Of a stretch of DNA of 64,000 nt, positions 26,749 through 59,011 are shown piece by piece (within the stretch, counting starts at the first letter, position 1; every line of letters begins with the position of its first letter). A program made the translations under genes and the position numbers. Source of the stretch: a virus. Where the stretch lies: positions 7,919-71,918 of the IMG/VR virus record IMGVR_UViG_3300017752_002639. One strand, written 5' to 3'. Under the pieces are notes generated by a model. It ran no database searches, was not told the origin of the DNA, and worked only from the letters and a program-made list of their open reading frames with translations.

Positions 26749-26754
26749 AAGCAG

Positions 26755-26761
26755 ATAAATA
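26755..26761 (+). promoter_or_regulatory. Late promoter ATAAATA
   Basis: Intergenic GATAAATAC, then AGGGG and ATG 26789. Confidence 0.6.
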
Positions 26762-26788
26762 CAATTAGTCGTAACAGGGGTTCATTAA

Positions 26789-28312: not shown

Positions 28313-28315
28313 ATA
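28308..28315 (+). promoter_or_regulatory. Exact T4 late promoter consensus TATAAATA
   Basis: Overlaps the stop codon at 28310-28312; AGGA and ATG 28345 follow. Confidence 0.7.
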
Positions 28316-28344
28316 AAACTAGCACTTTATAGGAAGTAGAATAT

Positions 28345-29250: not shown

Positions 29251-29253
29251 TTT

Positions 29254-30339: not shown

Positions 30340-30342
30340 CAC

Positions 30343-30371
30343 TTGACAAACTGTTAATTCGAGTATATACT
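30343..30371 (+). promoter_or_regulatory. Sigma70-type promoter at the start of the enzyme island
   Basis: TTGACA (30343-48), 17 nt, TATACT (30366-71); GGAGA ribosome-binding site before ATG 30397. Confidence 0.75.
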
Positions 30372-30396
30372 ATAACAATATACTTGGAGATGTCGT

Positions 30397-30744
30397 ATGG
30401 ATGAAAGACTAGAAAAAGCACTTGAGTTCTCAAACTACATGGTTACGTTGAATAATCAACGTAGAATTGTAAGAGAACAATTTTTAGAAAACTGTGTTCA
30501 CTATTTAAATGGTGGAAAGTTTTCAGTTAACAGAGATTTAATTACATTTTGTCAAACACTAGTAACTAGAGATCAATCTAGTGCAGTGCTTATTGACGAC
30601 AATGATACCCCAATTGAAGTAGAAGATATTAATAAATTCTTAGATGATATCCTTGATATTTACTTTACTACAACATACGAGTACTACGATAAGTTTAACG
30701 AAATCAAAAAGAATCGAACAGTAGAAGGGTTAGTTAATTTATGA
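30397..30744 (+). CDS. Hypothetical protein, first gene of the enzyme island
   Basis: 115-aa ORF with a ribosome-binding site; translationally coupled to the next gene; no recognisable motif. Confidence 0.7.
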   Translation: MDERLEKALEFSNYMVTLNNQRRIVREQFLENCVHYLNGGKFSVNRDLITFCQTLVTRDQSSAVLIDDNDTPIEVEDINKFLDDILDIYFTTTYEYYDKFNEIKKNRTVEGLVNL

Positions 30745-31601
30745 GCAAAGGCGTATTGCTTTTCGCACAAAATAATAATACTGTCGACTATGTTAAACAA
30801 GCAATATATTGTGCAAGAAAAATAAAGAAGCATTTAGGTATTGGCGTAGCTATTGCTACAGATAATGCTGACTATTTAAAAAGCCAATATCCTTATTATG
30901 AAAAGTATGTAGATCATATTATCACTCTTGAATGGGCAGAGTGTAATCAAAAGAGAACATTCCGCGACGGCACAATGAGCAAACGTGATCTTGAATGGCG
31001 TAACTTTGATAGAAGCCTAAGTTATGATATAACTCCGTTCGATGAAACAATAGTAATGGATACTGATTTTATCATAGGCAATAATTTACTCAATCACGCA
31101 TTTAACAGTAACGAAGATTTTTTAATATGGCGTTACATAACTGATGTTAACATGGACAGACCAGACGAACATAGGTTTAATAAAATTAGCGATAGAAGTG
31201 TTGACATGTTTTGGGCTACAGTCTTTTACTTTAAAAAGACAAAACCAATGGAAGACTTTTTTGAACTAATAAAACACATTAAAGAAAACTGGCACTTCTA
31301 CAGATTAACATATCAAATTCCAAGTAAAATTTATAGGAATGATTTTGCATTTAGTATTGCTATACACATATTTAATGCACACCAAAGAACAGTATGGCCT
31401 AAGCCCTTACCAGGTAGATTATGGTTTACTAGTGACGCAGATATTTTAATGAAGATGGATGATGAAGAATATACTTTCTTATTAGACAAACGACATTGGA
31501 AGGGTCATTATCATGTAGGTGCAATTAAAGATTGCAATATTCATATTATGAACAAGTTTAGTTTAGACAGGGCAATTAGCGAGGCACTATCAGATGAATA
31601 G
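30741..31601 (+). CDS. GT-A fold glycosyltransferase-like protein (GT8/GT77-like)
   Basis: 'DITPFDETIVMDTDF' DxD motif; N-terminal 'GVLLFAQN'. Confidence 0.65.
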   Translation: MSKGVLLFAQNNNTVDYVKQAIYCARKIKKHLGIGVAIATDNADYLKSQYPYYEKYVDHIITLEWAECNQKRTFRDGTMSKRDLEWRNFDRSLSYDITPFDETIVMDTDFIIGNNLLNHAFNSNEDFLIWRYITDVNMDRPDEHRFNKISDRSVDMFWATVFYFKKTKPMEDFFELIKHIKENWHFYRLTYQIPSKIYRNDFAFSIAIHIFNAHQRTVWPKPLPGRLWFTSDADILMKMDDEEYTFLLDKRHWKGHYHVGAIKDCNIHIMNKFSLDRAISEALSDE

Positions 31602-32412
31602 AGGATTTTGCTTACTAGCACAAAACAATGAAAAAACTGATTATGTAAGACAAGCATATGCACTTGCTAAAAGTTTACATAGATATAACACAGATCAAAA
31701 AATTAGTTTAATAACTAATGATGATATTCCTAACGAGTGGAAAGAAGTATTTGATCAAATAATACCTATACCTTGGTCAGACGATGCAGATGAGTCTAAG
31801 TGGAAAATAGAAAATAGATGGAAAGTATATCACGCTAGTCCATATGATGAAACTATTGTATTAGAAGCAGACATGCTAATACTAACTGATATCACACACT
31901 GGTGGGAAGAACTTGCAAAGCGTGAATTATTTTTTGTTAGTAATGTTAGAACATACAGAGATGAAGTTGTAACTAATAGATTTTATAGAAAAACATTTGA
32001 TGCTAATGAACTACCAAACTTATATAGTGCATTGCATTACTTTAAAAAAGGTGATGTAGCAAAAGAGTTTTATAATCTATTAGAAATTATTGTTAACAAC
32101 TGGCAGTTATTTTACGGCAAGTATGCAAAAGAAGAATATCAAAAATGGTGTAGTATTGACTTATGCGCGGCAATAGCAAGTAAAATACTAGATAACGAAA
32201 AAGAAATTACAGATCCAAATAGCTATGTTACTTTTACACATATGAAGCCAAGGGTACAAGGTTGGTACAACATTCCTACTAAATGGACAAGAGCAATAGG
32301 AAAGTATTATAGAGATGACGGAACATTGTTATTAGGAAATCATTTACAAACAAGAGTATTACATTATGTTGAAGATGAATTCCTCACAGACGAATTGCTG
32401 GAGAACTTATAA
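31594..32412 (+). CDS. GT-A fold glycosyltransferase-like protein (paralog of 30741)
   Basis: 'HASPYDETIVLEADML' (ExD variant) and 'LYSALHYFKK', which aligns with 'FWATVFYFKK' of the previous gene. Confidence 0.65.
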   Translation: MNRGFCLLAQNNEKTDYVRQAYALAKSLHRYNTDQKISLITNDDIPNEWKEVFDQIIPIPWSDDADESKWKIENRWKVYHASPYDETIVLEADMLILTDITHWWEELAKRELFFVSNVRTYRDEVVTNRFYRKTFDANELPNLYSALHYFKKGDVAKEFYNLLEIIVNNWQLFYGKYAKEEYQKWCSIDLCAAIASKILDNEKEITDPNSYVTFTHMKPRVQGWYNIPTKWTRAIGKYYRDDGTLLLGNHLQTRVLHYVEDEFLTDELLENL

Positions 32413-32978
32413 TGGAGCAAACGTTTTATTTAAACTTTGAAGAAGATACTGGTCATATATGGAAAGCTACGAACGAATGTGACGACTCAACTCCGTATAT
32501 AGAAGTTGATGCAGAAACTTGCTCTCAGTTTACAACTGGTGCAAAAGACATGAACGATTATATTATCATTCCTTCGTTAACTGACAAAAAGTTTGAAATT
32601 AAATTTAAACACAGAGACCTAACAGAATTTGATGTAGATAAAAGCATACATAGAATAGAGATAAGCAATACAGATGATCATAAAAATGCATTTATGATTA
32701 TACAAGAAAATGGATATTGGACAATTAAACTTTCTAAGCATATGCAGGAAACACTTACGTCTACAGCATATTATAAGGATAAAACCCAATTAATATATGT
32801 AACAAAGAAAAATGACCCCAATATTTTACTAGACACAATGACAATAAAGTTGTATAATGTATTGTATAATGATGAATATAGACTAGAGAATCAAGATGTT
32901 AATGTAGCCAAAAGTAATGATGTTAGTTTATTTTGTGGTAAAGTATTTGAAGAATATAAACATGTGGTGAGAGTATGA
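32412..32978 (+). CDS. Hypothetical protein
   Basis: 188-aa ORF coupled to both neighbours; no motif recognised. Confidence 0.7.
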   Translation: MEQTFYLNFEEDTGHIWKATNECDDSTPYIEVDAETCSQFTTGAKDMNDYIIIPSLTDKKFEIKFKHRDLTEFDVDKSIHRIEISNTDDHKNAFMIIQENGYWTIKLSKHMQETLTSTAYYKDKTQLIYVTKKNDPNILLDTMTIKLYNVLYNDEYRLENQDVNVAKSNDVSLFCGKVFEEYKHVVRV

Positions 32979-33865
32979 GTATAAAAGTTGTAGACCAAGA
33001 TATTATATTTCTGTCGTATGATGAGCCTAATGCAGAAAAGAACTATGCAGACTTGTGTAGTAAAATTCCGTGGGCAAAACGTGTACATGGAGTAGAAGGC
33101 TCAGATGCCGCACACAAAGCGTGTGCTGACCTAAGTGAAACAGAATATTTTGTTACTGTAGATGCAGACAATATTGTTGATCCAGAATTTTTAAATCAAG
33201 TAGTTGATTATGAAGCATTAGGACTATCAGCAGAACATGTGTTTAGTTGGTGTGGCAAGTTACATGTTAACGGACTAATGTACGGCAACGGCGGATTAAA
33301 AATGTGGACACGTAAGTTTGTACATAGTATGAAAACACACGAACACTCAGAAGAGGGCGATGAACGTGGTAAAGTAGAATTTTGTTTTGATGACAAGTAT
33401 TATCAGTTTAATGATAACTTCAGCACTTCTTATACTAATGCAACACCGTGGCAGGCATGGAGAGCAGGCTTTCGAGAAGGTGTCAAGATGTCTTTGGATC
33501 AAGGTGCTAAAGTAGATGACCTTCGTAAGGTGTGGTGGCAGAATTATCAACGTTTGCTTATTTGGAGTCAAGTAGGTGCAGATGTTAGACATGGTATATG
33601 GAGTATACTAGGTGCGAGGCAAGGCTGTTATCTAACAAATTGTACACCTTGGGATTATGCTAATGTACGTGACTTTGAATGGCTAAACAACTTTTGGGAA
33701 ACAGAAGTAAAAGATGTAGATCCACTTGAAACATCTATTCATTTAGGAACTGAGATACTAAAAGGCACAGGTGCCGATATATCTACTACACCTCTTGATG
33801 AACAACAAAGTAAGTTTTTTAAAAGTGTATATCAAAACACTCCAAGGATAATTAGGACTAAATGA
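32975..33865 (+). CDS. GT-A (GT2-like) glycosyltransferase-like protein
   Basis: 'IIFLSYDEP...RVHGVEGSDAAH...FVTVDADN' DxD motif; paralog of 42062. Confidence 0.6.
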   Translation: MSIKVVDQDIIFLSYDEPNAEKNYADLCSKIPWAKRVHGVEGSDAAHKACADLSETEYFVTVDADNIVDPEFLNQVVDYEALGLSAEHVFSWCGKLHVNGLMYGNGGLKMWTRKFVHSMKTHEHSEEGDERGKVEFCFDDKYYQFNDNFSTSYTNATPWQAWRAGFREGVKMSLDQGAKVDDLRKVWWQNYQRLLIWSQVGADVRHGIWSILGARQGCYLTNCTPWDYANVRDFEWLNNFWETEVKDVDPLETSIHLGTEILKGTGADISTTPLDEQQSKFFKSVYQNTPRIIRTK

Positions 33866-35235
33866 GTAACGAACAGCGTATAAAAATACTAGAAGAAAAG
33901 CGTGAGAAAATTAACAATGTAAGTTGTTCATTCTGTACGGCTAAATGGTTACAAACTACGCTACTATTACAGAATGGTTACAATCACAGTTGCCATCATC
34001 CTGCTCCACATAAGATTCCGTTGCATGAAATTGAAGCTGATCCAGCCGCATTACATAATAGTAGACACAAAAAGAAAATGCGTAAAATGATGCTAGAAGG
34101 CAACCGCCCAAGTGAATGTGGGTATTGCTGGAAAATTGAAGATTTAGATAAAGACTATTTTAGTGACAGGCATTATAAAACAAGTGATACTTGGGCTTGG
34201 GATAAATTTGAAGACATTGCTAAAAGTAATTGGCAAGACAATGTGTATCCAAGTTACTTAGAAGTTTCATTTAGTAATGCGTGTAATTTTGCTTGTGCAT
34301 ATTGTTCACCTGAGATTAGTAGTAAATGGATGGAGGATATAAAACAAAACGGAGAGTATCCAACTACACACGGTTCACATAATTTAGACTATTTAGAAAA
34401 GTCTGGTAAAATGCCTTACAAGAATAGAGAACATAATCCATATGTTGAAGCGTTTTGGAAATGGTTTCCTGATGCACTACCTCATTTAAAAGTATTGCGT
34501 ATTACAGGTGGCGAACCTACTATGTCAAAAGATACTTGGAAGTTATTAGATTATCTTACTGAAAACCCACGCAAAGGTTTAGACATATCAATTAACACCA
34601 ATGGGTGTGTTGAAGATAAACTAATTGACAAACTAATTTTAAAAGTTAATCAACTTGCTGAAGTAGGTGTAAAGGTTGATGTATACACTAGTTTAGAAAG
34701 CACAGGCGCACAGGCTGAATATGCTCGTGACGGACTTGACTATATAAAATGGTTAGACAACGTAGATAAAATATTAAAAGAAACAAAGTCGTCAGTTGCA
34801 ATTATGACAACAGTTAATATTCTTAGCTTGCCAACATTCATTGACTTTATAATGACTGTTATAGATTTTAGAAAAACATACAACACTAGTTTTGAAGTAA
34901 ACAGAATACCACTAAGTGTTAACATAATGCATTGGCCACCACATTTACAATGCACACTATTAGATAAAGAAGAAAGAATACCATATGCAGAAACTATTGA
35001 AAAGTTTTGCGAAACATGGTTAAAATATTATAGAAAAGACAAATTTGCTAGAATATATCTTGAGGAGTTTGATCAAATACAAAGGTTATGTGATTATTTG
35101 CGTACAACAGAATCAGCAACTGAACACAGAGCTGACTTTGTAAGATACATACATGCATACGATAAGAGAAGAAATAAAAACTTTGTGGAAACGTTCCCAC
35201 AATACATAACACATTTAGAGGAATGGAATGGCTAA
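33862..35235 (+). CDS. Radical SAM enzyme 1, N-terminal twitch/SPASM-like domain (SCHHP type)
   Basis: CNFACAYC, ITGGEP; N-terminal FCTAKW...SCHHP...CGYCW. Confidence 0.88.
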   Translation: MSNEQRIKILEEKREKINNVSCSFCTAKWLQTTLLLQNGYNHSCHHPAPHKIPLHEIEADPAALHNSRHKKKMRKMMLEGNRPSECGYCWKIEDLDKDYFSDRHYKTSDTWAWDKFEDIAKSNWQDNVYPSYLEVSFSNACNFACAYCSPEISSKWMEDIKQNGEYPTTHGSHNLDYLEKSGKMPYKNREHNPYVEAFWKWFPDALPHLKVLRITGGEPTMSKDTWKLLDYLTENPRKGLDISINTNGCVEDKLIDKLILKVNQLAEVGVKVDVYTSLESTGAQAEYARDGLDYIKWLDNVDKILKETKSSVAIMTTVNILSLPTFIDFIMTVIDFRKTYNTSFEVNRIPLSVNIMHWPPHLQCTLLDKEERIPYAETIEKFCETWLKYYRKDKFARIYLEEFDQIQRLCDYLRTTESATEHRADFVRYIHAYDKRRNKNFVETFPQYITHLEEWNG

Positions 35236-36676
35236 AAAACCTGATGAATCTCTACAACAGTATAGAGATAGAGTACTAGATAGCAAAAGCAAAAGTTTTT
35301 GCGGAGCCAAATGGTATAACGCTACTACATGGTTAGGTAGTGGAACAACAGCTAGTTGTCATCATCCACCTGCGCATCAAATTCCATTAATTGAAATACA
35401 AGACAATCCGTCTGCAATTCATAATACTAAGCATAAAAAAGAAATGCGCCGTATGATGCAAAAAGGCGAGCGTCCACGCGAGTGTGAATATTGCTGGAAG
35501 ATGGAAGACATGAAAAAGGATGCTGTTAGCGACAGAACTTTTAAAAGTATTATCTACTCTGACGAAGAATTACAACAAGCATATGAAGCAGATGCAAACG
35601 AAAATACTAATCTTAAAACTTTTGAGATTGCATTTGATAGAACTTGTAACTTAGCATGTAGTTATTGTAATGCAAGTTTCTCAACTACATGGGCAAAAGA
35701 CATCAAGAAGAATGGCCCGTACGAAAATTTAGTTAGTGATGGCGCAGGCGCCTTTCATCAAGACGGTAGTTGGGCGGCACCATATGACAACGATGAAGAC
35801 AATCCGTACATACAAGCATTTTGGAAATGGTGGGAAAGCGGCCTAGCAGATAGTTTAGAAGAACTACGTGTTACAGGTGGCGAACCTTTAATGAGTGGAA
35901 ATACTTGGAAATTGTTTGATTGGTTTAATGCACAAGATACTAATATGCGTTTTGCTATTAACAGTAATCTAATTGCTAAAGATAGCATTATTGATAAGTT
36001 AATTGATAAGACAAAGGGTATGAAGCACTTTGATTTATATACAAGTTGCGAAGCAGTTGGTGAACAAGCAGAATATATACGTGATGGTTTAGATTACGAC
36101 ATGTGGCTAAGAAATACTAAAAGGTTACTTACTGAAGGTAACTGTAACAATATTAATATTATGATGACTATTAATAGCTTGTCGTTGTTTAGTATTACAG
36201 AATTTTTAGACGAAGTGTATAAACTAAAAGAACTTACACAAAGTAGAACACCAACAGTTAGTGTAAACTTATTGCGCTTTCCTAGTTTCCAAAGTCCGTT
36301 AGCATTACCTAATCATATCAAAGACTATTGCCATAACAAACTAAACACTTGGTGGCAAGAACGTAAAGACGATATTGGCTGGCACGAATTTGAAAAGGCA
36401 AGTATTGAACGTTTGATAGATTACTTAGTAACTGTAGATGCTCCGCATAGACGTACAAGTAATCCTACTACATTATGGCGTGACTTTAAAACATTCTATC
36501 AACAGTATGATGTACGCAGAAACAAAAGTATATATGTGTTTCCTAAAATATTAACAGATTGGATTGAAAGTATTCCTAGTACTGATATTGAAGTACAAGC
36601 ACTTGCAGAAAAAGAAGGTTGGATATTAAAACCTGACAATAAAAATATAGACGAGCCTTTAGCAAAGTATGATTAA
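35228..36676 (+). CDS. Radical SAM enzyme 2, N-terminal twitch-like domain (SCHHP type)
   Basis: CNLACSYC, VTGGEP; FCGAKW...SCHHP...CEYCW. Confidence 0.88.
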   Translation: MAKKPDESLQQYRDRVLDSKSKSFCGAKWYNATTWLGSGTTASCHHPPAHQIPLIEIQDNPSAIHNTKHKKEMRRMMQKGERPRECEYCWKMEDMKKDAVSDRTFKSIIYSDEELQQAYEADANENTNLKTFEIAFDRTCNLACSYCNASFSTTWAKDIKKNGPYENLVSDGAGAFHQDGSWAAPYDNDEDNPYIQAFWKWWESGLADSLEELRVTGGEPLMSGNTWKLFDWFNAQDTNMRFAINSNLIAKDSIIDKLIDKTKGMKHFDLYTSCEAVGEQAEYIRDGLDYDMWLRNTKRLLTEGNCNNINIMMTINSLSLFSITEFLDEVYKLKELTQSRTPTVSVNLLRFPSFQSPLALPNHIKDYCHNKLNTWWQERKDDIGWHEFEKASIERLIDYLVTVDAPHRRTSNPTTLWRDFKTFYQQYDVRRNKSIYVFPKILTDWIESIPSTDIEVQALAEKEGWILKPDNKNIDEPLAKYD

Positions 36677-38018
36677 TTTGTACTACGATACATTAGGTGA
36701 CGACACCGTACCTATTCCTAACGGAACAAAACTTTGGGAGTATGGTGTAAACACTAAACGTATTCCTAAAGCAGTTGATGCACATTTAATAGTACATGAG
36801 TATACATACTTTTTTAATTGTATAAAAGCATTAGGATCTCCGTTTCAGTTATTCACTGGCAAGGAAGATTGTAATAATTTATTCTATCCTTTAGAATTAA
36901 ATCCTCAACATGCATTAAAAGAAGATGAAGATATATTAGATTATATTCCAACCAAATCTATTAAACGTATTAGTAAAGGCAAAATGAAGATGTTATTGCT
37001 TATGCCTTCTATTAGTAGCGATTATAGATATGTTTGGAAGTTGCGTAAAAAAATAGATAATCTTACCGGTTCAGGTATTCCACGTGAACAAATATATGTT
37101 GTGCTAGGAGATATAAATCAAACATACAGAAACTTACTAAACACAAAGAATGTATTTGGTATAGACTGGAATCAAATTTATATGCAAATTGCACTAAAGG
37201 CAAGATATGCAATGGAAGATTTTAGATGGGTATTTAATAATGCTTTTGCCGCGTGGCCAGGTAAAGAAAAACTAAAAGCTGAACAATTTGATATAGATAA
37301 CTGGAACCCTAAAAGATTGTATTCTGCGTTTACTGGCAAAGCAACGTTACATAATACGTGTTTTGTATCTGATTTAAAATATCACGGATTAGATAACTTA
37401 GGAAAATACAGTTATAATATTGGATATGAAAATGTTAATCATAACTATAAAGATTTTAGAATAACTGATAGATCTAAAGGCGAAGAGTTTATTGAAACTA
37501 AGAAACATTTTGTTAAAAATCTCTCTAAGAAAACAATTATTATGGATATGACATTTGATCAAAAGCGGCACAACGGAAATGATCAATATATTAATAAGTC
37601 AATATACGAAGACAGCCTTATTAATATTGTAAGTGATAATTGGATGCCAATGATGGATGAAAATTATTTAGACGAAACTAATGTACTTGCACCAGGAAAA
37701 TTTATATGGTTGCAAATAGCCAAAGCTCACCCCTTTATGGTGCTAGGGTGCTTAAATACAATTAACTATATTACAAATCAAGGATATTTTTCTAATAACT
37801 TTTTAGTTAATGAAGATTATGATAGAGTATCTAGTATTACAAAGACATCAGAAATGATTTGTAATAATTTAAAAATATTAAACGAGCTTACAGACAGCGA
37901 AATTAGAGATAAAATGGAATTTATAAAACCTTACTTAAAAAAGAATAAAGAAAAGTTTTTTGAAAGACCTAATAAGCGAAAGTTTAATTTACTATTTGAA
38001 GAGATGAAATATGAGTAA
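36669..38018 (+). CDS. Hypothetical protein, possibly glycosyltransferase-related
   Basis: C-terminal 'LINIVSD...IAKAHPFMVLG...QGYF...NEDYD' loosely resembles GT10/exostosin-like tails; the canonical TEK motif is absent. Confidence 0.35.
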   Translation: MINLYYDTLGDDTVPIPNGTKLWEYGVNTKRIPKAVDAHLIVHEYTYFFNCIKALGSPFQLFTGKEDCNNLFYPLELNPQHALKEDEDILDYIPTKSIKRISKGKMKMLLLMPSISSDYRYVWKLRKKIDNLTGSGIPREQIYVVLGDINQTYRNLLNTKNVFGIDWNQIYMQIALKARYAMEDFRWVFNNAFAAWPGKEKLKAEQFDIDNWNPKRLYSAFTGKATLHNTCFVSDLKYHGLDNLGKYSYNIGYENVNHNYKDFRITDRSKGEEFIETKKHFVKNLSKKTIIMDMTFDQKRHNGNDQYINKSIYEDSLINIVSDNWMPMMDENYLDETNVLAPGKFIWLQIAKAHPFMVLGCLNTINYITNQGYFSNNFLVNEDYDRVSSITKTSEMICNNLKILNELTDSEIRDKMEFIKPYLKKNKEKFFERPNKRKFNLLFEEMKYE

Positions 38019-39276
38019 TGATCTAAAAAACAGTCCTAACTTTTGTGTAGCACCTTGGATGCACTTACATGTTATTAACGATGGTAGGTCATTTGCATGT
38101 TGTCAAACACCATTGCGTGATGAAAATAGTTTTGGTAATGTAAAAACACAAACACTAGACGAAGTTATGAATAGTGATCTTGCTAAGAAAATGCGTAAAG
38201 ATATGCTAGACGGAAAACCGTTACCTAGTGCATGTGAGCGTTGTGTAAATAAACAAGCCAATAATATGAATACTATGCGTACTGGATTAAATTCTAAATG
38301 GTATGATAGAACTAAAGATGTTATTGCTACAACAGCAGACGATGGTACACTTCCTAAGCCTAAATTAAAATACTGGGATTTTAGATTTAGCAACTATTGT
38401 AACCTAGCATGTACAACTTGTTCACCTTTGTTTAGTACACAGTGGGCAAACGACTTTCAAAAATTACATCCAGGTGCAGACAAATATAGTGAAACTAAAC
38501 TTATTGACCTAACTGAAGCAAATGTATTTTGGGACGATATTGAAAACAATATTGACTCAATGGAAGAAATACACTTTGCTGGCGGCGAACCATTAATCAT
38601 GCCTGAGCATTTACGCATACTTAAACTTCTTGATGCACAAGAAAAGTTTGATGTTGAATTGCGTTATAGTACTAATGGTACAACACTTGGTCAAAAAAAG
38701 TATGACTATTTAGAATGGTGGAAGAAATTTAAATATGTACACCTTAGTCTTAGCATTGATGGCGCAGGCGATGCGTTTGAACACATTAGATATAAAGGCA
38801 AATGGGACGTTACACTTGCAAACCTTAAAAAGATTAGAGCAAGCGGAGCCGCAGATTATTGGTTCCATCCAACTGTCAGTGTACTAAACATTTTCCGACT
38901 AACTGAGCTACATGAAGTATTACATAAAAATGATCTAATGCCGCTGGAAGCAATTCATCCACAGCGTGGGTTTCATATGGAAAATTACTGGGTTGATAGA
39001 TTTCATATCAATCCATTGTTTACGCCAAACTATTACAGCATTACAGTTATGCCAGAATTATTAAAAGAGCAAGCCGCTGATAAGATTACAAAGTATGGCA
39101 AGAAATTAGAAGCTGATACAGGTATACCGTTTAGTGGTTGGCAAGCAGTTATTGACTTTATGTACCAAGAAGACAAGAGTATGTTATGGAATCAATTTAA
39201 ATGGAAAAGCAAACAAATTGATGATGTAAGAGGCACTAATGTATATGCTATAAACCCTGAGTTCAAAGATGCTTAG
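38011..39276 (+). CDS. Radical SAM enzyme 3, N-terminal twitch domain (CC type)
   Basis: CNLACTTC, FAGGEP; FCVAPW...ACC...CERC. Confidence 0.88.
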   Translation: MSNDLKNSPNFCVAPWMHLHVINDGRSFACCQTPLRDENSFGNVKTQTLDEVMNSDLAKKMRKDMLDGKPLPSACERCVNKQANNMNTMRTGLNSKWYDRTKDVIATTADDGTLPKPKLKYWDFRFSNYCNLACTTCSPLFSTQWANDFQKLHPGADKYSETKLIDLTEANVFWDDIENNIDSMEEIHFAGGEPLIMPEHLRILKLLDAQEKFDVELRYSTNGTTLGQKKYDYLEWWKKFKYVHLSLSIDGAGDAFEHIRYKGKWDVTLANLKKIRASGAADYWFHPTVSVLNIFRLTELHEVLHKNDLMPLEAIHPQRGFHMENYWVDRFHINPLFTPNYYSITVMPELLKEQAADKITKYGKKLEADTGIPFSGWQAVIDFMYQEDKSMLWNQFKWKSKQIDDVRGTNVYAINPEFKDA

Positions 39277-40117
39277 AGGTAATGCGTTTCTTCCTTATCT
39301 TATGAGCTCGCCGGCTAATGTAAAGTCGCTCGAGTACCTAAGAACATTTGGTGTAGGCGAAGTGCTTACTAAATCAGTTAAAAATTTAAAAACAAAACTA
39401 CCGTTCGTTAAACCAAAAGCATATGAAACGTTAGCTATTAATCAAGCAGAACAAGATATACTAGATCCTAATACTGATTGGAAATATTACATTAACAAGT
39501 ATGGATTTAGAAATGAATGGGACTTAGACTCTAAAAAAGAAAAAATAGGATTCTTTGGATGTAGTTTTACATTTGGTGAAGGTATTCACAATGACGATAC
39601 GTTTGTTAACATTGTTAGCAACACACTACATATGAGTCCTATAAATTTAGGAGTTGGTGGATCAGGATTAGAAAGAACTACTAGAACTTTTGCCGCGGCC
39701 ACTAAAGTAATAGACTTTGATTATGCAGTTGTAACATTGCCTGCATGGTTCCGTCAACTACATGTAACTAAAGAAGGAAAGTTAATTAATATTATTCCTT
39801 ATTATCCTCATAATGATTTTGAAAAGTTAAATGAAATATATTCATCATTTGATGAAGACTTTTTTGTTAATCAAGCAATAACATATATTAATTGGATAGG
39901 AGATATTGCAACAGCAAATAATATAAAGTTAATTTTATGCTCCTGGGATCATCCATTAAATGAATTATGTCAATTAATTTATCCAGATATTACTATAGAT
40001 CCTTTTCCTAATATTGATGACAAGTGTGCAAGAGATAAAATGCACCCTGGTCCAAAGTCTCAAGCGGCACACGCAGAGCAAATTATAAAGGCATTTGATG
40101 ATAGAGCTTGGGTTTAG
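39269..40117 (+). CDS. SGNH/GDSL-fold protein (putative acyltransferase or esterase)
   Basis: Block I 'FFGCSFTFG', block II 'NLGVGGSG', block V 'DKMHPG'. Confidence 0.6.
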   Translation: MLRGNAFLPYLMSSPANVKSLEYLRTFGVGEVLTKSVKNLKTKLPFVKPKAYETLAINQAEQDILDPNTDWKYYINKYGFRNEWDLDSKKEKIGFFGCSFTFGEGIHNDDTFVNIVSNTLHMSPINLGVGGSGLERTTRTFAAATKVIDFDYAVVTLPAWFRQLHVTKEGKLINIIPYYPHNDFEKLNEIYSSFDEDFFVNQAITYINWIGDIATANNIKLILCSWDHPLNELCQLIYPDITIDPFPNIDDKCARDKMHPGPKSQAAHAEQIIKAFDDRAWV

Positions 40118-41063
40118 AAACATTAAAGATGAAGTGAAATATATTCATATCAAACCACACGATACTGAGTTAGCAAACGTATGGCTAACACAATTTGATA
40201 GATTACTTGAAACCCATCAAAAAAAGATATTCCAAAAAAATTTTAGTCTATTAGGATTGCACAATAACTACAGAACATTAGAACACATCTGTGATGATTT
40301 AGATAGAAGTATTGCAACTATAAACTACTATTCAGACTATAAAATTGAAGATAACTTTGGTGCATTACGTTATGGATACAATCAAATATTATTAAACGTG
40401 CTACATCATCATTTTGAAACAGCACAAGGCCAACTATGGAACCCTAGTAGTGTATTAGCAAATGCTAACGGAAAAACTAGATTAGCAATTTGTTATCTAA
40501 ACCATTGCTGTCACGAACTTGAAGCATGGTACGAAACAACAGATATAGAAGCAGACGGATATCGCAATGGTTACTTTTACTATAATCTGCTAGGCATACA
40601 AGAACGCATCGAATTAGATCCAAAGTTTAAAAAGTATTTTACTAAAGACGTTGAAGACGGTATGGTATATTTGCATTACGCACAAACAGGTAAAACTTGG
40701 TACGAAGCATACCTTGACAATGATGATGTAGTTACAGCAGATGGTATTTCTGAACATCGTGTAATTAGCGGTGAATTTAATTTTTACTTTGGCACAGGAT
40801 ATGAGCTACCATCAGACGATAAGTTTACAAGTTGGTTAGAGTCAAAAGGTGTTGATCCTAAGGATGAACAACTAGCACTAGGATATGCACCAGTTGGTAA
40901 AATACAAAACTTACCTGATTTAGAAGCACAAGAATTTTTTAAAGAGTACACAGACTTTTATAGTATTGAGTATAACAACAAAAGAATAGAATATGACTTT
41001 AGACACAACGATGAAAATTATATTAATCTACTTACAGAGATTTGGGATAAGTGGGGACAATGA
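40095..41063 (+). CDS. Hypothetical protein (His/Cys-containing)
   Basis: 322-aa coupled ORF; 'LHHHFE' and 'LNHCCHELE' may bind metal; no family recognised. Confidence 0.65.
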   Translation: MMIELGFRNIKDEVKYIHIKPHDTELANVWLTQFDRLLETHQKKIFQKNFSLLGLHNNYRTLEHICDDLDRSIATINYYSDYKIEDNFGALRYGYNQILLNVLHHHFETAQGQLWNPSSVLANANGKTRLAICYLNHCCHELEAWYETTDIEADGYRNGYFYYNLLGIQERIELDPKFKKYFTKDVEDGMVYLHYAQTGKTWYEAYLDNDDVVTADGISEHRVISGEFNFYFGTGYELPSDDKFTSWLESKGVDPKDEQLALGYAPVGKIQNLPDLEAQEFFKEYTDFYSIEYNNKRIEYDFRHNDENYINLLTEIWDKWGQ

Positions 41064-42043
41064 GTAACGTACCTAATTTAGAAAGAGCTGTAGTAGAAGT
41101 ATTTGGCGGCTGTAATTACAAATGTCAAATGTGTCCACAAACTACCGGACGTGGCAAAGACTGGACACGTAAGATGCCATTTGATATGTTTGAAGATATA
41201 TTAGATCAGTTGCCAGGTAAGCCTGTGATTAACTTAGAAGGTTCAGGTGAACCAACAATGGCAAAGGATTTACCACGTTACATTGAAGCATGTACTAAGC
41301 GTGGCTTGCCTAGTTTTATGTACAGCAACGGAAGTTTCTTTAGCGGACACTTTATGCAGGACTGTATTGATGCAGGACTTAGTTTTGCAAGATTTAGTTG
41401 TATAGGCTACGACAAAGACAAGTATAAAGAATGGATGGCAATTGATAATTTTGAACTACTAAAAACAAATGTTATAAAAGCAAAACAGTATATTAAAGAA
41501 ACTAATAGCAAGTGCGAAATAAGTAGTTACCATTTAATACTAGACAACAATCAAATTGAATATGAAGTTGATCAATATAGAAATAACTTTATAGGTCCTA
41601 CTGGCACAGTAGGGTACATATGGAAAATGCACAATTGGAGTGGCAACTATCAACCATTATATGTGCGTGACCCTAGTAAACGTAGAACATGTGGCAGACC
41701 ATTTGCTCCAGAGATTACAATACGCTCAGGCGGCATTGCTGGATTGAAAGGTGCTGTTACTCCTTGCTGTCAAACAATGGGACCACCTAACGAAAGTAAA
41801 AGTGTACTAGGACATACACAAATACAAACTATAGAAGAAATATGGTATGGAGACGAATACAACAACCTTCGCAAAGCACATGAAATGAAAGACTTTGATA
41901 GTATAGATTATTGTAAGGACTGTGATTTTTTATATGAAGATCCTGAAGTATTAGTTTGGAGTAACGACAAAAAAGCAAGCACAGATCATATGTTAGGTAC
42001 AAACTTTAGTTTGCGTGATTTTATGATTGACAACAACAAGTAG
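41051..42043 (+). CDS. Radical SAM enzyme 4 with C-terminal SPASM/twitch domain
   Basis: CNYKCQMC, GSGEP; C-terminal CGRPF...PCC...CKDC. Confidence 0.88.
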   Translation: MGTMSNVPNLERAVVEVFGGCNYKCQMCPQTTGRGKDWTRKMPFDMFEDILDQLPGKPVINLEGSGEPTMAKDLPRYIEACTKRGLPSFMYSNGSFFSGHFMQDCIDAGLSFARFSCIGYDKDKYKEWMAIDNFELLKTNVIKAKQYIKETNSKCEISSYHLILDNNQIEYEVDQYRNNFIGPTGTVGYIWKMHNWSGNYQPLYVRDPSKRRTCGRPFAPEITIRSGGIAGLKGAVTPCCQTMGPPNESKSVLGHTQIQTIEEIWYGDEYNNLRKAHEMKDFDSIDYCKDCDFLYEDPEVLVWSNDKKASTDHMLGTNFSLRDFMIDNNK

Positions 42044-42055
42044 AGGCTGTATAAT
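42027..42055 (+). promoter_or_regulatory. Perfect sigma70 consensus promoter; predicted +1 at or next to ATG 42062
   Basis: TTGACA (42027-32), 17 nt, TATAAT (42050-55), 6 nt, ATG. Confidence 0.75.
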
Positions 42056-42061
42056 ATATAA

Positions 42062-42739
42062 ATGTATGACATCGTATTCATAAGTTATAATGAGCCTAAT
42101 GCAGATGCAAATTGGGAACTAGTAAAATATAGGTTTCCAAGAGCAAAGCGTGTTGATGGCGTAAAAGGAATTCACCAAGCACACATTGCCGCCGCTAAAA
42201 AATGTTTTACTAAAATGTTTTGGGTTGTAGATGCAGATGCAAAAATATTAGATAGTTTTAAATTTGATCACAAAGTAGATGAGTACGATTTAGAAACTGT
42301 ACATGTGTGGCGCAGTCGTAATCCAGTAAATGATTTACTATACGGATATGGCGGAGTGAAGTTGTTACCACGTAAACTTACACTAAACATGGATACAACA
42401 AAGCCAGACATGACTACAAGTATTAGTGAGTATTTTAAAGCAATGCCTGAAACATCTAATGTTACAGCATTTAATACAAATGAGTTTGAAGCATGGAAGG
42501 GTGCATTTAGAGAATGTACCAAACTAGCAAGTAAAACTATAGACAGACAAAACGAGGATGAGACAAATGAAAGATTACGAGTTTGGACAACAGTGGGAGA
42601 AGACCGTCCCTTCGGCGAGTACGCTATTAAAGGTGCTATTGCTGGCCGGGAGTATGGGCTTTCTAGCGGCGTTGATATTCGCCTAATAAACGACTTTGAT
42701 TGGTTACATGAACAATTTTCAAAACATACCATGGGATAA
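42062..42739 (+). CDS. GT-A (GT2-like) glycosyltransferase-like protein (paralog of 32975)
   Basis: 'DIVFISYNEP...RVDGVKGIHQAH...FWVVDADA'. Confidence 0.6.
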   Translation: MYDIVFISYNEPNADANWELVKYRFPRAKRVDGVKGIHQAHIAAAKKCFTKMFWVVDADAKILDSFKFDHKVDEYDLETVHVWRSRNPVNDLLYGYGGVKLLPRKLTLNMDTTKPDMTTSISEYFKAMPETSNVTAFNTNEFEAWKGAFRECTKLASKTIDRQNEDETNERLRVWTTVGEDRPFGEYAIKGAIAGREYGLSSGVDIRLINDFDWLHEQFSKHTMG

Positions 42740-43712
42740 TATTACCGAATTTGGCCAGAAGACTCTCCTAAAGAGCCATCTTTTCACGGTTTCGTGGATC
42801 CTGGCTAGATTTTGTAATTATAACTGCTCTTATTGCTGGCCATACGCTAGATCTAGTACCCCTGACCACCAGGATTTAGAATTGTACTTAAAGACCCTAG
42901 ATAGTATCAAAGCACAGGCTCGTGCAAATGGCTTTAAAGATTTCCATTTTAGTTTCTCAGGAGGCGAACCTACAGCGTATAAATACTTTGGGGAGATCAT
43001 AGATCATTATTGCAGTGATGCAACACCCGAATACCAAAGTATACATATGACAACTAACTTGTCACCTGGAAGCAAATGGTGGAGCAGATGGATAGAGTCA
43101 ACAAGTACTTTGCAACGTAGAAGTATAACAGCAAGCTATCATGCAGAGTTTGCAAATGAACAAGAGTTTGGAGACAAATGTCTTCAGCTTATGAAAGCAG
43201 GTGTATATGTTACGATTAATCAAGTTATGGTTCCAGAAATTTTTGAAGATCTTTACGAAAGGCTTGAACGATTTGCCACCAGAGGTATTAACGTCACTCT
43301 CAAGCCCCAGTCCGATCCAACCGCCTCCCACGTGGTACATGGATATAGTGAAGACCAAATCACAAGAATGCAAACCGGATTCCCACAAACAATTCCAGAA
43401 GCATTTAAAGGAATAATACCTTTACTACAAGTAGAGCTTACAGACGACAAAGGCGAAAAGTATTACGTAGATCAAGCAGAACGCTTTAATGCATTCGGCT
43501 TTAACAAGTTTGAAGGTTGGACTTGCAATGCAGGTTATCAAGGTATTGTTATTCGTGGTAATGAAGTAAAGCGTAGTTACAGTTGTCGAGATGAGCCAAT
43601 TGGTACATTAGAGGACGGCTTTAAAATATTTGACAAACCTCGTAAATGCATCACACCAACGTGTGTTAGTTCCGCTGACTCAAAACTTCCAAAGGTAAAA
43701 TATGAAGATTGA
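42708..43712 (+). CDS. Radical SAM enzyme 5 (short type, C-terminal 'GW.C' Cys domain)
   Basis: CNYNCSYC, FSGGEP, 'FEGWTCNAG...YSC...CITPTCVS'. ATG 42708 preferred over TTG 42696. Confidence 0.87.
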   Translation: MNNFQNIPWDNITEFGQKTLLKSHLFTVSWILARFCNYNCSYCWPYARSSTPDHQDLELYLKTLDSIKAQARANGFKDFHFSFSGGEPTAYKYFGEIIDHYCSDATPEYQSIHMTTNLSPGSKWWSRWIESTSTLQRRSITASYHAEFANEQEFGDKCLQLMKAGVYVTINQVMVPEIFEDLYERLERFATRGINVTLKPQSDPTASHVVHGYSEDQITRMQTGFPQTIPEAFKGIIPLLQVELTDDKGEKYYVDQAERFNAFGFNKFEGWTCNAGYQGIVIRGNEVKRSYSCRDEPIGTLEDGFKIFDKPRKCITPTCVSSADSKLPKVKYED

Positions 43713-44304
43713 TGTACAAGACGTATTATTTTGGATGGATGCTATTCGCAACAGTGATGATCGCTATCGCACACTTGAAAGTTTTTGGAAAGGGCAAGTA
43801 AACAGCAAAGTATGGTTAGCTGAGAACTTGGTAGGATTTGTACCCGTTAGACCGTTAAATATCGTCATATACGGTGGTTGGAACGGAGTGCTGGCAAGTA
43901 TACTCTTTAACTCTAATATAGCTGTAGAACACGTTACAAGCGTGGATATAGACCCTGTATGCGAAGATATAGCAAACACAGTAAACAAGCGTTATGAAAT
44001 GCAAGGTAAATTTGAAGCAGTTACACATGATATGTGCAAATACGTTACAGGAGCAGATGTTGTAATTAATACAAGTTGTGAACACATAACACAAGAGCAG
44101 TACGATCAATGGTTAGATAATCAACCTGACAATGCAGTTATTGTATTACAAAGCAATAACTATTTTAAACACGAAGAACATGTTCGATGCTCAAAAGATT
44201 TAGATAATTTTACAAAAATAAGTAATATTAAACCCTACTTGCGTAGAGTTTTAGAAACACCAAAATACGATCGTTATATGTTGATAGGTAAAAAGAATGT
44301 TTAG
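43702..44304 (+). CDS. Class I SAM-dependent methyltransferase-like protein
   Basis: 'IVIYGGWNG', 'VTSVDID' and 'VVINTSCEH' fit Rossmann methyltransferase motifs I, II and IV. Confidence 0.65.
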   Translation: MKIDVQDVLFWMDAIRNSDDRYRTLESFWKGQVNSKVWLAENLVGFVPVRPLNIVIYGGWNGVLASILFNSNIAVEHVTSVDIDPVCEDIANTVNKRYEMQGKFEAVTHDMCKYVTGADVVINTSCEHITQEQYDQWLDNQPDNAVIVLQSNNYFKHEEHVRCSKDLDNFTKISNIKPYLRRVLETPKYDRYMLIGKKNV

Positions 44305-45376
44305 TTTTAGCGACTTAGAAAATATACATTTAGAAATTACAAATCGCTGTCAGGCAAGTTGTCCAATGTGTAGTAGAAATTATCACGGCGGATTAGAAAA
44401 CCCTCTTATCAAAAACAAAGACTGGACATTACAAGACTTTCAAAATATACTAACAAAAGAAGTGTTGGATCAATTAAAAGGATTTTATTTCTGTGGCAAC
44501 TTTGGTGATCCTATTATTAATGATGAATTAATTGAAATGGTTGAATATGCCGCAACAGTTAATCCTAACTTAAATATTAGAATACACACAAACGGAAGTG
44601 CAAGAAACACAGACTGGTGGGCAAGACTTGCAAAAGCATTACCTGTAACGCATAACGTTATTTTTGCTATTGACGGATTAGAAGATACACACAAATTATA
44701 TCGTATAGGTACTAGTTACAAAAAAATATTACAAAATGCTACAGCATTTATTGAAGCAGGCGGCACAGCGGAATGGTGCTTTATAAAATTTAAACATAAC
44801 GAACATCAAGTAGAAGAAGCACGTACTATTGCAGAGCAAATGGGCTTTAGTTTATTTGTTGAAAAGAATAGTAGTAGATTTATAGGAACACCAGAATTTC
44901 CTGTATACGATAAAAATGGTGCAACTACACATTACTTGGAGCCACCTAGCAGTAGTGAACTTGCATTTATTACAGAAGATATGGTTGCTAATTACAAAGA
45001 CATTTTAAACAATGCAGAAATAGATTGCTATGTGTTGCAAACTAAAGAAGTATACATTGATGCATATAAGAAAATATTTCCGTGTTGTTTCTTAGCAAGT
45101 ACACCGTACAACTATGCAAAAACAAATGATGTTACAGCACCAATAAGAAATCACATGCACGAACAATACCTAGACTTAATAGAAAATTTAGGTAATACTA
45201 ATGCACTTGAAGTTTCTTTAAAACAAGTAATTGATTCTACACCTTGGCAAACAGTGTGGAAAGATTACTGGGGCAAAAATAAGCTAATTACATGTGCAAG
45301 AACATGTGGTAAAGTAAAAGAATTACCTAAACCAAAAGATCAATTTATTAGAGTAGTGGGATTAAACAATGAGTAA
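44297..45376 (+). CDS. Radical SAM enzyme 6 with C-terminal SPASM/twitch domain
   Basis: CQASCPMC, GNFGDP; C-terminal FPCC...CARTC. Confidence 0.87.
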   Translation: MFSFSDLENIHLEITNRCQASCPMCSRNYHGGLENPLIKNKDWTLQDFQNILTKEVLDQLKGFYFCGNFGDPIINDELIEMVEYAATVNPNLNIRIHTNGSARNTDWWARLAKALPVTHNVIFAIDGLEDTHKLYRIGTSYKKILQNATAFIEAGGTAEWCFIKFKHNEHQVEEARTIAEQMGFSLFVEKNSSRFIGTPEFPVYDKNGATTHYLEPPSSSELAFITEDMVANYKDILNNAEIDCYVLQTKEVYIDAYKKIFPCCFLASTPYNYAKTNDVTAPIRNHMHEQYLDLIENLGNTNALEVSLKQVIDSTPWQTVWKDYWGKNKLITCARTCGKVKELPKPKDQFIRVVGLNNE

Positions 45377-46784
45377 ATGGTGGTATAACGATAAAGACAG
45401 TGAGCTAGGCAAGTATCAACGAGAACTAGAAAGCGTTGCAAAAAGTCCTACGTTTTGTGTTCTACCTTGGATACACTTTGCTACTAGACCTAATGGCGAT
45501 ATGCGTTTATGTTGTTCGTCTAATGCAAGTGGTGCTGGCGGAGACCATACAGTTGGACTTGTTAAAATGGAGGATGGTAAGCCAGCAAACTTTGGCAGAG
45601 AAACTCCAATGGAAGCATGGAATAACGACTACATGAAAAGTGTACGTACAACTATGCTTAATGGACAAATACCTGCAAGTTGTACTAAATGCTTTGAAGA
45701 AGAAAAAGTAGGAGTAGTAAGTAAGCGTATATGGGAAAGTGGTACCTGGCATAGAGACGATGATGGTGTAGACATTCCTTATTTGATTGAACAAACACAA
45801 GCAGACGGAACAGTACCGGAAGAGTTAGTATACTTAGATCTACGTTTAGGACATACTTGCAATATTAAATGTGTGATGTGTAGTCCACATGATAGCAGTA
45901 AGTGGGTAGCAGATCACAAAAAACTTATTCCTGTATTACAAGACCCTGATGTTAAAAGACAAATGCAATGGGATAAAAGTGAGTTCAATAATAAATGGCA
46001 TGAAAAAGATACGTTCTGGGAAGAAATGTATGCACAGATACCTAATCTAAAACAAGTATATTTTGCAGGCGGTGAGCCTCTAATGATCAAAGAACATAAA
46101 ATGTTTATTGAAGAAATTATTAGACAAGGCTATCAAGACAAAATATTGTTACGTTACAATTCAAATGGACTATTAGTAGACGAAGATCTAATTGAGTTAT
46201 GGTCAAAGTTTAAAAAAGTAAAGTTTGCTATTAGTATGGATGCTAGTCACGGACGTGATGAATACATACGTTTTCCTACAAACTTTGAAACTGTAGAAAA
46301 AACTTTGCATATGCTTGACAACACACCTGACAACATACAAACAAGTTTAGCAACAGCAATACAAATATTCAACGTAAAGCATTTACCAGACTTTATGAAA
46401 TGGAAACTAGAAAGCGGATTTAAAAAATTAAATAGCGGTACAGTGCCTGGTGGTGTGCAAATGGGCGGTGGCTTAGTTAATATGCACTTGTTGTATATTC
46501 CAACTTTCCTTAGTATACAAATACTACCAGAACACGACAAACAAGAAGTTAAAGAACGTTTTATGGACTTTAAAGATTACTTGTGGAACAACTATAGACA
46601 AGATGATGACTTTTGGAAAGTTAATCCTTATGGCTGGAAACGTTGGGAAGCTGTAATGAATCATATGAATGCACAAGACAACAGTCATTTACTTCCGGGC
46701 TTTAAAGAGTACACAAACAAATTAGATGCAATTCGTAATTTAAATGCGGCCAAAGTATTTCCAGAGCTTGCTCACTTGTTATGA
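45369..46784 (+). CDS. Radical SAM enzyme 7, N-terminal twitch domain (CC type)
   Basis: CNIKCVMC, FAGGEP; FCVLPW...LCC...CTKC. Confidence 0.88.
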   Translation: MSKWWYNDKDSELGKYQRELESVAKSPTFCVLPWIHFATRPNGDMRLCCSSNASGAGGDHTVGLVKMEDGKPANFGRETPMEAWNNDYMKSVRTTMLNGQIPASCTKCFEEEKVGVVSKRIWESGTWHRDDDGVDIPYLIEQTQADGTVPEELVYLDLRLGHTCNIKCVMCSPHDSSKWVADHKKLIPVLQDPDVKRQMQWDKSEFNNKWHEKDTFWEEMYAQIPNLKQVYFAGGEPLMIKEHKMFIEEIIRQGYQDKILLRYNSNGLLVDEDLIELWSKFKKVKFAISMDASHGRDEYIRFPTNFETVEKTLHMLDNTPDNIQTSLATAIQIFNVKHLPDFMKWKLESGFKKLNSGTVPGGVQMGGGLVNMHLLYIPTFLSIQILPEHDKQEVKERFMDFKDYLWNNYRQDDDFWKVNPYGWKRWEAVMNHMNAQDNSHLLPGFKEYTNKLDAIRNLNAAKVFPELAHLL

Positions 46785-57092: not shown

Positions 57093-57097
57093 AAAAG

Positions 57098-57113
57098 TAT
57101 TTATTGGTAAATA
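57098..57113. promoter_or_regulatory. Second divergent late-promoter pair
   Basis: GTATTTATTGGTAAATAT; each TAAATA lies 5 nt before its ATG (57092 minus, 57119 plus). Confidence 0.72.
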
Positions 57114-57118
57114 TTTGC

Positions 57119-59010: not shown

Positions 59011-59011
59011 A

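Follow-up and report, generated by a model that had tools for sequence, protein, structure and literature searches.

A glycosyltransferase core and a variable radical-SAM shell beside the fibre genes of a marine T4-like phage: a candidate pathway for virion glycosylation

Pelagimyophages and cyanomyophages carry a hypervariable host-recognition cluster (HRC), which follows a giant VrlC-like gene and fibre genes and contains GT8-type glycosyltransferases (GTs), radical S-adenosylmethionine (SAM) cassettes and Asp/Asn beta-hydroxylases (Zaragoza-Solas et al. 2020, PMC7029224), and a T4-like marine genome with 12 radical-SAM genes has also been described (Nishimura et al. 2017, PMC5332604). An island of this kind, which is already known from such annotation papers, is present in the stretch of DNA analysed here, a window of 64,000 nucleotides (G+C approximately 34%) comprising bases 7,919-71,918 of the 79,098-bp virus contig IMGVR_UViG_3300017752_002639. 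The contig is incomplete and derives from an uncultured, abundant marine T4-like phage. As in the HRC, an open reading frame (ORF) of 5230 amino acids (aa) and a set of fibre paralogues precede an island of GT and radical-SAM genes, and the radical-SAM content is variable over 45 related loci; genes are referred to below by their coordinates in the window. The new elements are the split of promoter classes within one window, the statistics of related loci and a predicted complex between the products of 30397 and 30741. The GTs probably act together with tailoring enzymes on one sugar-containing product, and the preferred reading, which is held tentatively, is that the island builds a glycan on a virion protein of the adjacent fibre/tail module and then tailors that glycan.

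The order of genes in 80 related IMG/VR loci divides the island into a fixed core and a variable shell. Fibre paralogues are followed by 30397, 30741, 31594, a poorly conserved gene of ~190 aa, 32975, a variable insert, 42062 and a second variable insert, after which comes a conserved minus-strand block (61367-62858). Genes 30397, 30741 and 31594 are present in 55-56 of the 56 loci that have upstream DNA, and a separate 42062-like gene is present in 40 of the 45 loci with at least 5 kb of downstream DNA. Radical-SAM genes are absent from 18 of these 45 loci and number one to seven in the other 27, and a homologue of the QueC-like gene 53193 is present in only three of the 80. On this gene order, 30397-30741-31594-32975-42062 is a conserved unit behind the fibre genes, into which extra radical-SAM and other genes have apparently been inserted in the source phage. 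Among 50,697 phage records, the core is found only in the cultured Ralstonia jumbo phage RsoM2USA, where the contiguous ORFs 354-347 correspond to 30397 (ORF354), 30741, 31594, (32412), 32975, 33862 (ORF349, 43.6% identity), 42062 (ORF348, 44%) and 43702 (ORF347, 32%), and where the module likewise lies behind baseplate and fibre genes. A megablast search of the 30-50 kb region against the same records returned zero matches. Phage fibre genes together with the GT core also occur on contigs from metagenome-assembled genomes (MAGs) labelled Bifidobacterium, Neomarinimicrobiota, Rickettsiales, Fischerella, Haliscomenobacter and Legionellales (L085, L087, L089-L091, L093-L095, L097, L103, L115, L116 and L124), which look like phage contigs mis-binned into bacterial MAGs.

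The core contains two paralogous pairs of predicted GTs, as the preliminary description of this DNA had proposed. The first pair, 30741 and 31594, shares 26% identity (E 3e-12) and adopts a GT-A fold in the predicted model. The model of 30741 (predicted local distance difference test score, pLDDT, 94.6) matches glycogenin over the whole chain (Z 15.8, root-mean-square deviation, rmsd, 3.6 Å over 212 residues), followed by UGGT (Z 15.4), LgtC (Z 14.4) and WbbM (Z 14.1), with a Foldseek E of 1e-6 at probability 1.00. A profile of the family returned only glycogenin chains from the PDB (n=19), at a marginal E of ~1e-3 and spanning the DxD motif, which lines up with the DAD of glycogenin. The columns of D109, D201 and H268 are invariant in both paralogue groups and D107 is conserved in at least 90% of sequences, 31594 having EAD in place of DxD. 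Pfam Glyco_transf_8 gave no match to either protein at any E up to 10.

The first gene of the core, 30397, is predicted to encode a binding partner of 30741. A complex prediction gave an ipSAE of 0.79, whereas the best of three controls reached 0.02; the mark is reached by 58 of 80 solved complexes and by 2 of 110 mismatched pairs, counts that apply only roughly here, own alignments having been supplied. Three runs have at least 86% of contacts in common, and the pLDDT of the partner is 88. The predicted contact surface on 30741 includes the segment right after the DxD motif and the beta-rich C-terminal part, which would form the seat of the partner. Thr71 of 30397 lies near the interface, and because this residue is not conserved as a hydroxyl among homologues, an adaptor role is more likely for the modelled 30397 than an acceptor role.

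The second pair, 32975 and 42062, shares 32% identity (E 8e-28), again with a GT-A fold in the model, and D63 and D65 are invariant in 39 aligned sequences, 42062 included. The top Foldseek match of the 32975 AlphaFold model (pLDDT 93.9) is the capsid-glycosylating enzyme A64R of PBCV-1 (E 8e-5), followed by RmlT, SunS/ThuS and TarP; 40 PDB matches have an E of 1e-3 or lower, those listed being mostly GT-A enzymes with a few nucleotidyltransferases. In VIA, the model matches B4GALNT1 (Z 10.6), a Leptospira GT (10.3) and ThuS (9.6) over ~140 residues with an rmsd of 3.0-3.3, and the GT of phage Che8 ranks fifth in BFVD. Pfam Glycos_transf_2 matches 32975 at E 0.018 and 15.4 bits, below the cut-off of 23.3, and does not match 42062. 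The 32975 family is large: 7,915 of 8,000 candidates scored are members, which fall into 1,254 clusters at 50% identity, and more than 7,900 clusters are formed at 90% identity. Its homologues in the 80 loci have a median identity of 66%. Weak GT2 matches are seen in some relatives, and some carry a fused GT-B domain; for two such fusions, P0266 and P0181, the surrounding sequence was too short to inform. A role in flagellin glycosylation, raised by a weak GmaR match (E 0.086), was rejected, because four of the five bacterial genomes checked have flagellin genes, and in these four they lie far from the GT homologue.

Pfam, PHROGs and NCBIfam gave a GT name to none of the GT candidates of the island. 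Four GTs are supported by the models and motifs above, whereas the preliminary description had counted four to six. The two further candidates were not borne out: for 36669, Pfam, PDB and profile searches were empty and Atlas GT10 clusters at 0.78 are within noise, and 55214 has zero matches in Pfam and the PDB. The SGNH and methyltransferase assignments fared better and are retained as probable. In 39269, G97-C98-S99, N126, G131, D256 and H259 are invariant in 24 sequences and the best four profile matches in the PDB are SGNH/GDSL enzymes, but these are weak (E 0.013-0.36) and Pfam gave no match. In 43702, G58-G59-W60-x-G62 (GGWNG), D82 and D84 are invariant and Atlas neighbour clusters carry Methyltransf_31/PCMT at 0.87-0.96, but Pfam Methyltransf_25 matches only at E 0.18 and the profile search of the PDB returned irrelevant matches only. 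Single-sequence PDB searches with 30741, 39269, 55214 and 36669 gave nothing usable.

The shell is dominated by radical-SAM enzymes. Pfam identifies 13 radical-SAM genes, two Asp/Arg hydroxylases and one QueC-like protein in the island, and the span first singled out as a glycosylation core (30741-44304) itself includes five of the radical-SAM genes. A CxxxCxxC motif is readable in the radical-SAM translations. The NCBIfam model NF033640 (N_Twi_rSAM), which has a cut-off of 170 bits, is passed by 33862 (323), 38011 (366.7) and 45369 (390.1 bits), and 35228, 48766 and 51935 are paralogues of these members, giving six N-terminal-twitch enzymes in the array. The usual order of domains is reversed in 38011-39276, 45369-46784 and 51935-53200, where the Cys-rich SPASM/twitch domain of Pfam is N-terminal to the radical-SAM core; in 38011 SPASM covers residues 12-78 and Radical_SAM residues 126-280. 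The oxygenase block 53901..60101 is almost without homologues in the 80 loci and is specific to the source phage and a few relatives.

Bacterial genomes were scanned with one genome per species, and many of the matches were mis-binned phage contigs. True chromosomal loci are present in Bdellovibrionota, where 32975- and 42062-like GTs lie beside 42696-, 44297- and 45369-like radical-SAM genes (identity up to 54%), together with a 43702-like methyltransferase, a QueC-like gene, which in Halobacteriovoraceae lies within the cluster, and canonical GT2 genes. A complete Bacteriovoracaceae chromosome has at least 11 radical-SAM genes in tandem beside GT2 genes and a weak PMT_2 match, and the NF033640 cut-off is passed in 31 of 151 Bdellovibrionota genomes but in none of the 14 controls. 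GTs and tailoring enzymes thus stay associated even away from phage tail genes, which argues that they serve one product. The proposal that GTs and radical-SAM, methyl and acyl tailoring enzymes belong to one pathway is in this way upheld by the same sets in phages and in Bdellovibrionota, and there is a high likelihood that the GTs act with the tailoring enzymes on one sugar-containing product. Tandem radical-SAM arrays were located at G004:C1:1406274-1427650 (L175) and in other Bdellovibrionota genomes too. MoxR/VWA neighbours are present both in the phage and in one Bdellovibrionia locus, an adjacency that was judged probably coincidental, such pairs being common.

The one product could instead be made during infection without being attached to a virion, and a cluster for a glycosylated, radically cross-linked peptide, resembling a glycocin or a ribosomally synthesised and post-translationally modified peptide (RiPP), or for a nucleoside-type metabolite is also conceivable. 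The best structural matches of 32975 include two peptide S-glycosyltransferases, SunS and ThuS, many weak NCBIfam radical-SAM matches are to peptide maturases, and the Bdellovibrionota islands resemble biosynthetic clusters. However, the maturase matches are far under their cut-offs, only NF033640 having passed, a family of which the function is not known, and the island showed neither a leader peptidase nor an exporter, nor any small ORF resembling a precursor. In minimal loci only the GTs are present, and sugars are the substrates of the known twitch-domain enzymes BtrN and HygY. That the island makes a small molecule or a peptide is on balance quite improbable.

The island is divided between two promoter classes. 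Sigma70-type sites occur only before 30397 and 42062, which are the sole two gaps in the half containing the GT genes and the plus-strand radical-SAM genes. In 45 of 63 relatives a strict sigma70-type site precedes the homologue of 30397, compared with 0.7% of random 80-nucleotide (nt) windows, and TAAATA is present at the same place in twelve of the 63. TAAATA is found in every intergenic gap before the structural genes 2830, 22128, 26789, 28345 and 60164 of this window, and the same holds for the gaps ahead of the QueC-like operon (53873) and of the oxygenase genes (53901 and 59550). Across the window, the motif lies 5-35 nt ahead of the ATG in the upstream gaps of 2830, 22128, 26789, 28345, 53873, 53901, 60101, 61312 and 62544. 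Judged from these motifs, the GT module appears to be a transcription unit of its own, and the promoter classes read together suggest early expression of one half of the island and late expression of the other. No terminator-like site is present at 30,339-30,397, between the last tail-side gene and the island, in agreement with the preliminary description; late read-through from the tail genes, which that description had drawn from it, is possible but is probably not the main driver, because the core has its own conserved sigma70-type promoter and the fibre genes have TAAATA.

Contigs of four seawater metatranscriptome studies match window 26000-45999 at ≥99%, the fibre genes being partly included. 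Parts of 30397, 31594, 32975, 35228, 38011 and 42062/42696 are covered by these RNA-library contigs, which indicate presence only, as strand, timing and freedom from DNA carry-over are not readable from contigs.

Under the preferred reading, a wholly cytoplasmic, phage-encoded pathway would build and tailor a glycan. The adaptor 30397 bound to 30741, the paralogue 31594 and the GT2-like 32975 and 42062 would form the fixed core and would move sugars from host nucleotide sugars to a conserved acceptor, making up to about four linkages. The shell, with 13 radical-SAM enzymes of which six are of the N-terminal-twitch type, the methyltransferase, the SGNH-type protein, the QueC-like ATP-dependent enzyme and several Fe/2-oxoglutarate oxygenases, would then edit the sugars. 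The GTs and the plus-strand radical-SAM half would be ready early from sigma70-type promoters, and the QueC-like, radical-SAM and oxygenase half would be made from late promoters. The acceptor would most likely be a virion protein of the neighbouring fibre/tail module. Sugar transfer, the order of the steps and, above all, the acceptor are what we infer from the observed folds, motifs, conservation, co-occurrence and promoter classes.

Several observations point to a virion acceptor. The core always lies beside fibre genes, the distant Ralstonia jumbo phage included, half of the island shares the late motif TAAATA with the fibre genes, and the structural neighbours of the GTs include capsid-glycosylating virus enzymes. 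No membrane-type hydrophobic segment was detected in the island ORFs, so that all the island enzymes look soluble, and none was identified as a flippase, polymerase, ligase or polyprenyl-phosphate (Und-P) enzyme. Other observations weigh against a virion acceptor. The core promoter is of the sigma70 type, not late, which fits DNA or host-surface targets at least equally; the fold does not separate protein-directed from lipopolysaccharide (LPS)-directed GT8 enzymes, LgtC and WbbM scoring within two Z units of glycogenin; and none of these proteins reached the threshold of a Pfam or NCBIfam GT model. Genes for making nucleotide sugars were not seen in the window, the fibre proteins have no obvious acceptor motif, such as collagen-like repeats or Ser/Thr tails, and the Bacteriovoracaceae island, with its weak PMT_2/GT-C match and a processive-type GT2 (Glyco_transf_21/GT2), hints at an envelope glycan there. 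A collagen-type scheme of hydroxylase plus GT was dropped, as collagen-like repeats were not found, and no Tyr/Ser/Gly-rich acceptor candidate was found.

Some of these points bear on a different target, the host envelope. Soluble GTs at the inner membrane face could modify lipid A-core, O-chain or capsule intermediates during infection, the tailoring enzymes would change the resulting glycan, and the changed surface would block superinfection or the adsorption of progeny to doomed cells. The sigma70-type promoter of the core suggests early expression, the LPS enzymes LgtC and WbbM score near glycogenin, LpxO, which hydroxylates lipid A, belongs to the Asp_Arg_Hydrox family, and the Bacteriovoracaceae island has both PMT_2 and Glyco_transf_21/GT2 matches. 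A change of the host O-chain has also been proposed for the GT8-rich clusters beside the fibre genes of pelagimyophages (Zaragoza-Solas et al. 2020, PMC7029224). The lack of membrane-type segments in the island ORFs, and of a flippase, polymerase, ligase or polyprenyl-phosphate transferase there, speaks against this target, as does the late-type half of the island, which would come late for exclusion. Furthermore, the core is common to marine phages and RsoM2USA, whose hosts are not expected to have similar envelope glycans. Envelope remodelling is regarded as unlikely.

A third target is the DNA itself, in which case the GTs and tailoring enzymes would decorate a hydroxymethylpyrimidine or 7-deazaguanine base and shield the genome from host nucleases. 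The QueC-like PP-loop protein 53193 scores above the Pfam QueC threshold (E 2.1e-5) and contains a CGxCxxCxxR motif, and a GTP cyclohydrolase I gene, FolE (L002:6708-7397, E 8e-37), lies just outside the window beside a divergent QueE-like radical-SAM gene (L002:5581-6474), which matches five QueE models at E 1e-8 to 1e-11, all under their cut-offs; L002:5581-7397 corresponds to about 77.2-79.0 kb of the genome. Together these genes hint at a 7-deazaguanine branch. The core also has an early-type promoter, and radical-SAM enzymes participate in known thymidine hypermodification. However, no QueD, DpdA/TGT or hydroxymethylase was found in the incomplete 79-kb contig, 18 of 45 relatives keep the four GTs without a downstream radical-SAM gene, and a QueC-like gene occurs in only three of the 80 loci. 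The place of the core within the fibre module is conserved. Structural clustering with DNA base glucosyltransferases, which the preliminary description had named as a refuting outcome, was not observed: the nearest structures of the modelled GTs are glycogenin, UGGT, A64R, SunS/ThuS and the Che8 phage GT, the GT models being of the single-domain DxD GT-A type, and no DNA glucosyltransferase is present among the best 50 PDB/BFVD matches listed or among hundreds of structural matches, an absence that is not proof. Over window 1-64000, GCWGC occurs at 3 sites compared with 59.7 +/- 8.3 expected from shuffles, a strong avoidance that suggests exposure to a GCWGC-cutting restriction system and hence DNA that is still open to restriction. 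Hypermodification of DNA or nucleotides is very unlikely on this evidence.

A broader version of the virion-glycan reading, in which marine T4-like phages, the Ralstonia jumbo phage and Bdellovibrionota have one glycan system in common, remains doubtful. The four-GT core and its adaptor would glycosylate a protein, which in the phages would be the tail fibres, and radical-SAM arrays would rewrite the attached sugars. If true, radical editing after glycosylation (epimerisation, C-methylation, dehydration or cross-linking) would generate a fast-evolving virion glycocode.

The features of the island and its two sigma70-type promoters are collected in Table 1. The island was originally described as lying directly after the tail genes, and this holds in so far as baseplate and fibre genes lie upstream: a VgrG-like baseplate gene, the baseplate wedge gene 2830 (PHROG E 1e-296) and three fibre paralogues, 22746, 24844 and 26789, with tail-fibre or virion-protein PHROG matches. 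The two genes immediately 5' of the island, 28345 and 29254, are paralogues of each other but have no tail annotation. The 5,230-aa product is encoded by a single ORF at 6414-22106 (plus strand), a VrlC-like giant structural protein with only patchy likeness to ORF361 of RsoM2USA. At the other end, the fibre gene said to close the island at 60,164 is confirmed by its Mtd_N domain; none of the 80 related loci has a homologue of it, and a template repeat or reverse transcriptase was not found within the contig. Elsewhere, an auxiliary metabolic gene of an unusual kind, for porphobilinogen deaminase (HemC, E 6.5e-57), lies at L001:790-1530 (minus strand), and L001:126-575 (minus strand) encodes a SegE-type GIY-YIG homing endonuclease.

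Table 1. Predicted features of the island, with window coordinates and the evidence for each assignment.
Feature	Coordinates	Strand	Evidence
Sigma70-type promoter TTGACA-17-TATACT heading the GT module	30343..30371	+	Sequence; no TAAATA in the gap
Conserved first gene (115 aa), predicted accessory subunit of the GT8-like enzyme	30397..30744	+	55/56 loci; complex prediction
GT8/glycogenin-like, retaining-type GT-A glycosyltransferase (predicted), DTD motif	30741..31601	+	Model; profile
Paralogue of 30741, EAD replacing DxD	31594..32412	+	26% identity; in 56/56 loci
188-aa protein, syntenic, poorly conserved	32412..32978	+	20-52% identity in 10-14 loci, same position; no family match (Pfam, PHROGs)
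GT2-like GT-A glycosyltransferase (predicted), DAD motif, best-conserved gene of the block	32975..33865	+	Model; invariant DxD
Two paralogous N-terminal-twitch radical-SAM genes	33862-35235, 35228-36676	+	NF033640 323 bits; mutual identity 37.5%
449-aa protein, GT claim not established	36669..38018	+	39 relatives, all on phage-type contigs
N-terminal-twitch radical-SAM enzyme	38011..39276	+	NF033640 366.7 bits
Probable SGNH/GDSL-type hydrolase or acyl-transferring enzyme	39269..40117	+	Motifs; weak profile matches
322-aa protein, Tyr-rich (8.1%)	40095..41063	+	Composition; no family match in Pfam/NCBIfam
Radical-SAM/SPASM enzyme	41051..42043	+	Pfam Radical_SAM 1.3e-10, SPASM 2.5e-9
Perfect sigma70-type promoter TTGACA-17-TATAAT, ending 6 nt before the 42062 ATG	42027..42055	+	Sequence
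Second GT2-like GT-A glycosyltransferase (predicted), paralogue of 32975	42062..42739	+	32% identity; DxD common to both
Radical-SAM enzyme	42696..43712	+	50-54% identical to Bdellovibrionota genes
Probable class I SAM-dependent methyltransferase	43702..44304	+	Motifs; Atlas neighbours
Five further radical-SAM genes of the same plus-strand unit, beyond the span first described	44297..49977	+	Pfam
Late-promoter operon: QueC-like PP-loop enzyme and three radical-SAM genes	49958..53873	-	Pfam; TAAATA
Oxygenase/cupin, kinase-like and SDR-like block	53901..60101		Asp_Arg_Hydrox matches; TAAATA
Fibre-like protein with Mtd_N domain, closing gene of the island	60164..61312	-	Pfam Mtd_N E 3.2e-14

The 32975 family is very common and sits in abundant ocean phages, and the island brings together two families of GTs and one or more large radical-SAM families whose reactions are not known. 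If the fibres are decorated, host recognition by viruses that rank among the commonest in the sea would gain a sugar layer and new radical carbohydrate chemistry would be opened, and if the product alters the host surface or DNA instead, a new route of counter-defence or exclusion would be indicated. RsoM2USA is a cultured carrier of the module (ORFs 347-354), which makes the question directly testable.

Among known systems, the HRC and the radical-SAM-rich T4-like genome (PMC7029224 and PMC5332604) are the closest by gene content, but the published descriptions are annotations only and mention neither the fixed set of five genes with its promoter and adaptor nor the related modules of RsoM2USA and Bdellovibrionota. 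Neither 32975 nor 30741 matched the record of the cultured pelagimyophage; a match was obtained only in RsoM2USA. By fold, the model of 32975 resembles A64R of PBCV-1 (PDB 2p6w) and the GT of Che8, which are soluble, virus-encoded GT-A enzymes whose cytoplasmic targets are capsid or tail proteins. The likeness is at the level of the fold only (11-14% identity, TM 0.28-0.37), and these known systems lack a radical-SAM array; the PBCV-1 glycan is also methylated. Glycogenin (GT8) and UGGT (GT24) are matched by the 30741 model in whole-chain fold, and its DxD lines up with the glycogenin motif, but the Pfam model of the first family is not matched. The T4 glucosyltransferases are likewise phage-encoded sugar transferases with early promoters; the alpha- and beta-enzymes are two-domain GT-B folds without DxD, whereas the models of the island GTs are single-domain DxD GT-A folds. 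For the NF033640 family no reaction is known, and its enzymes form here a six-member array beside GTs, as they do in Bdellovibrionota.

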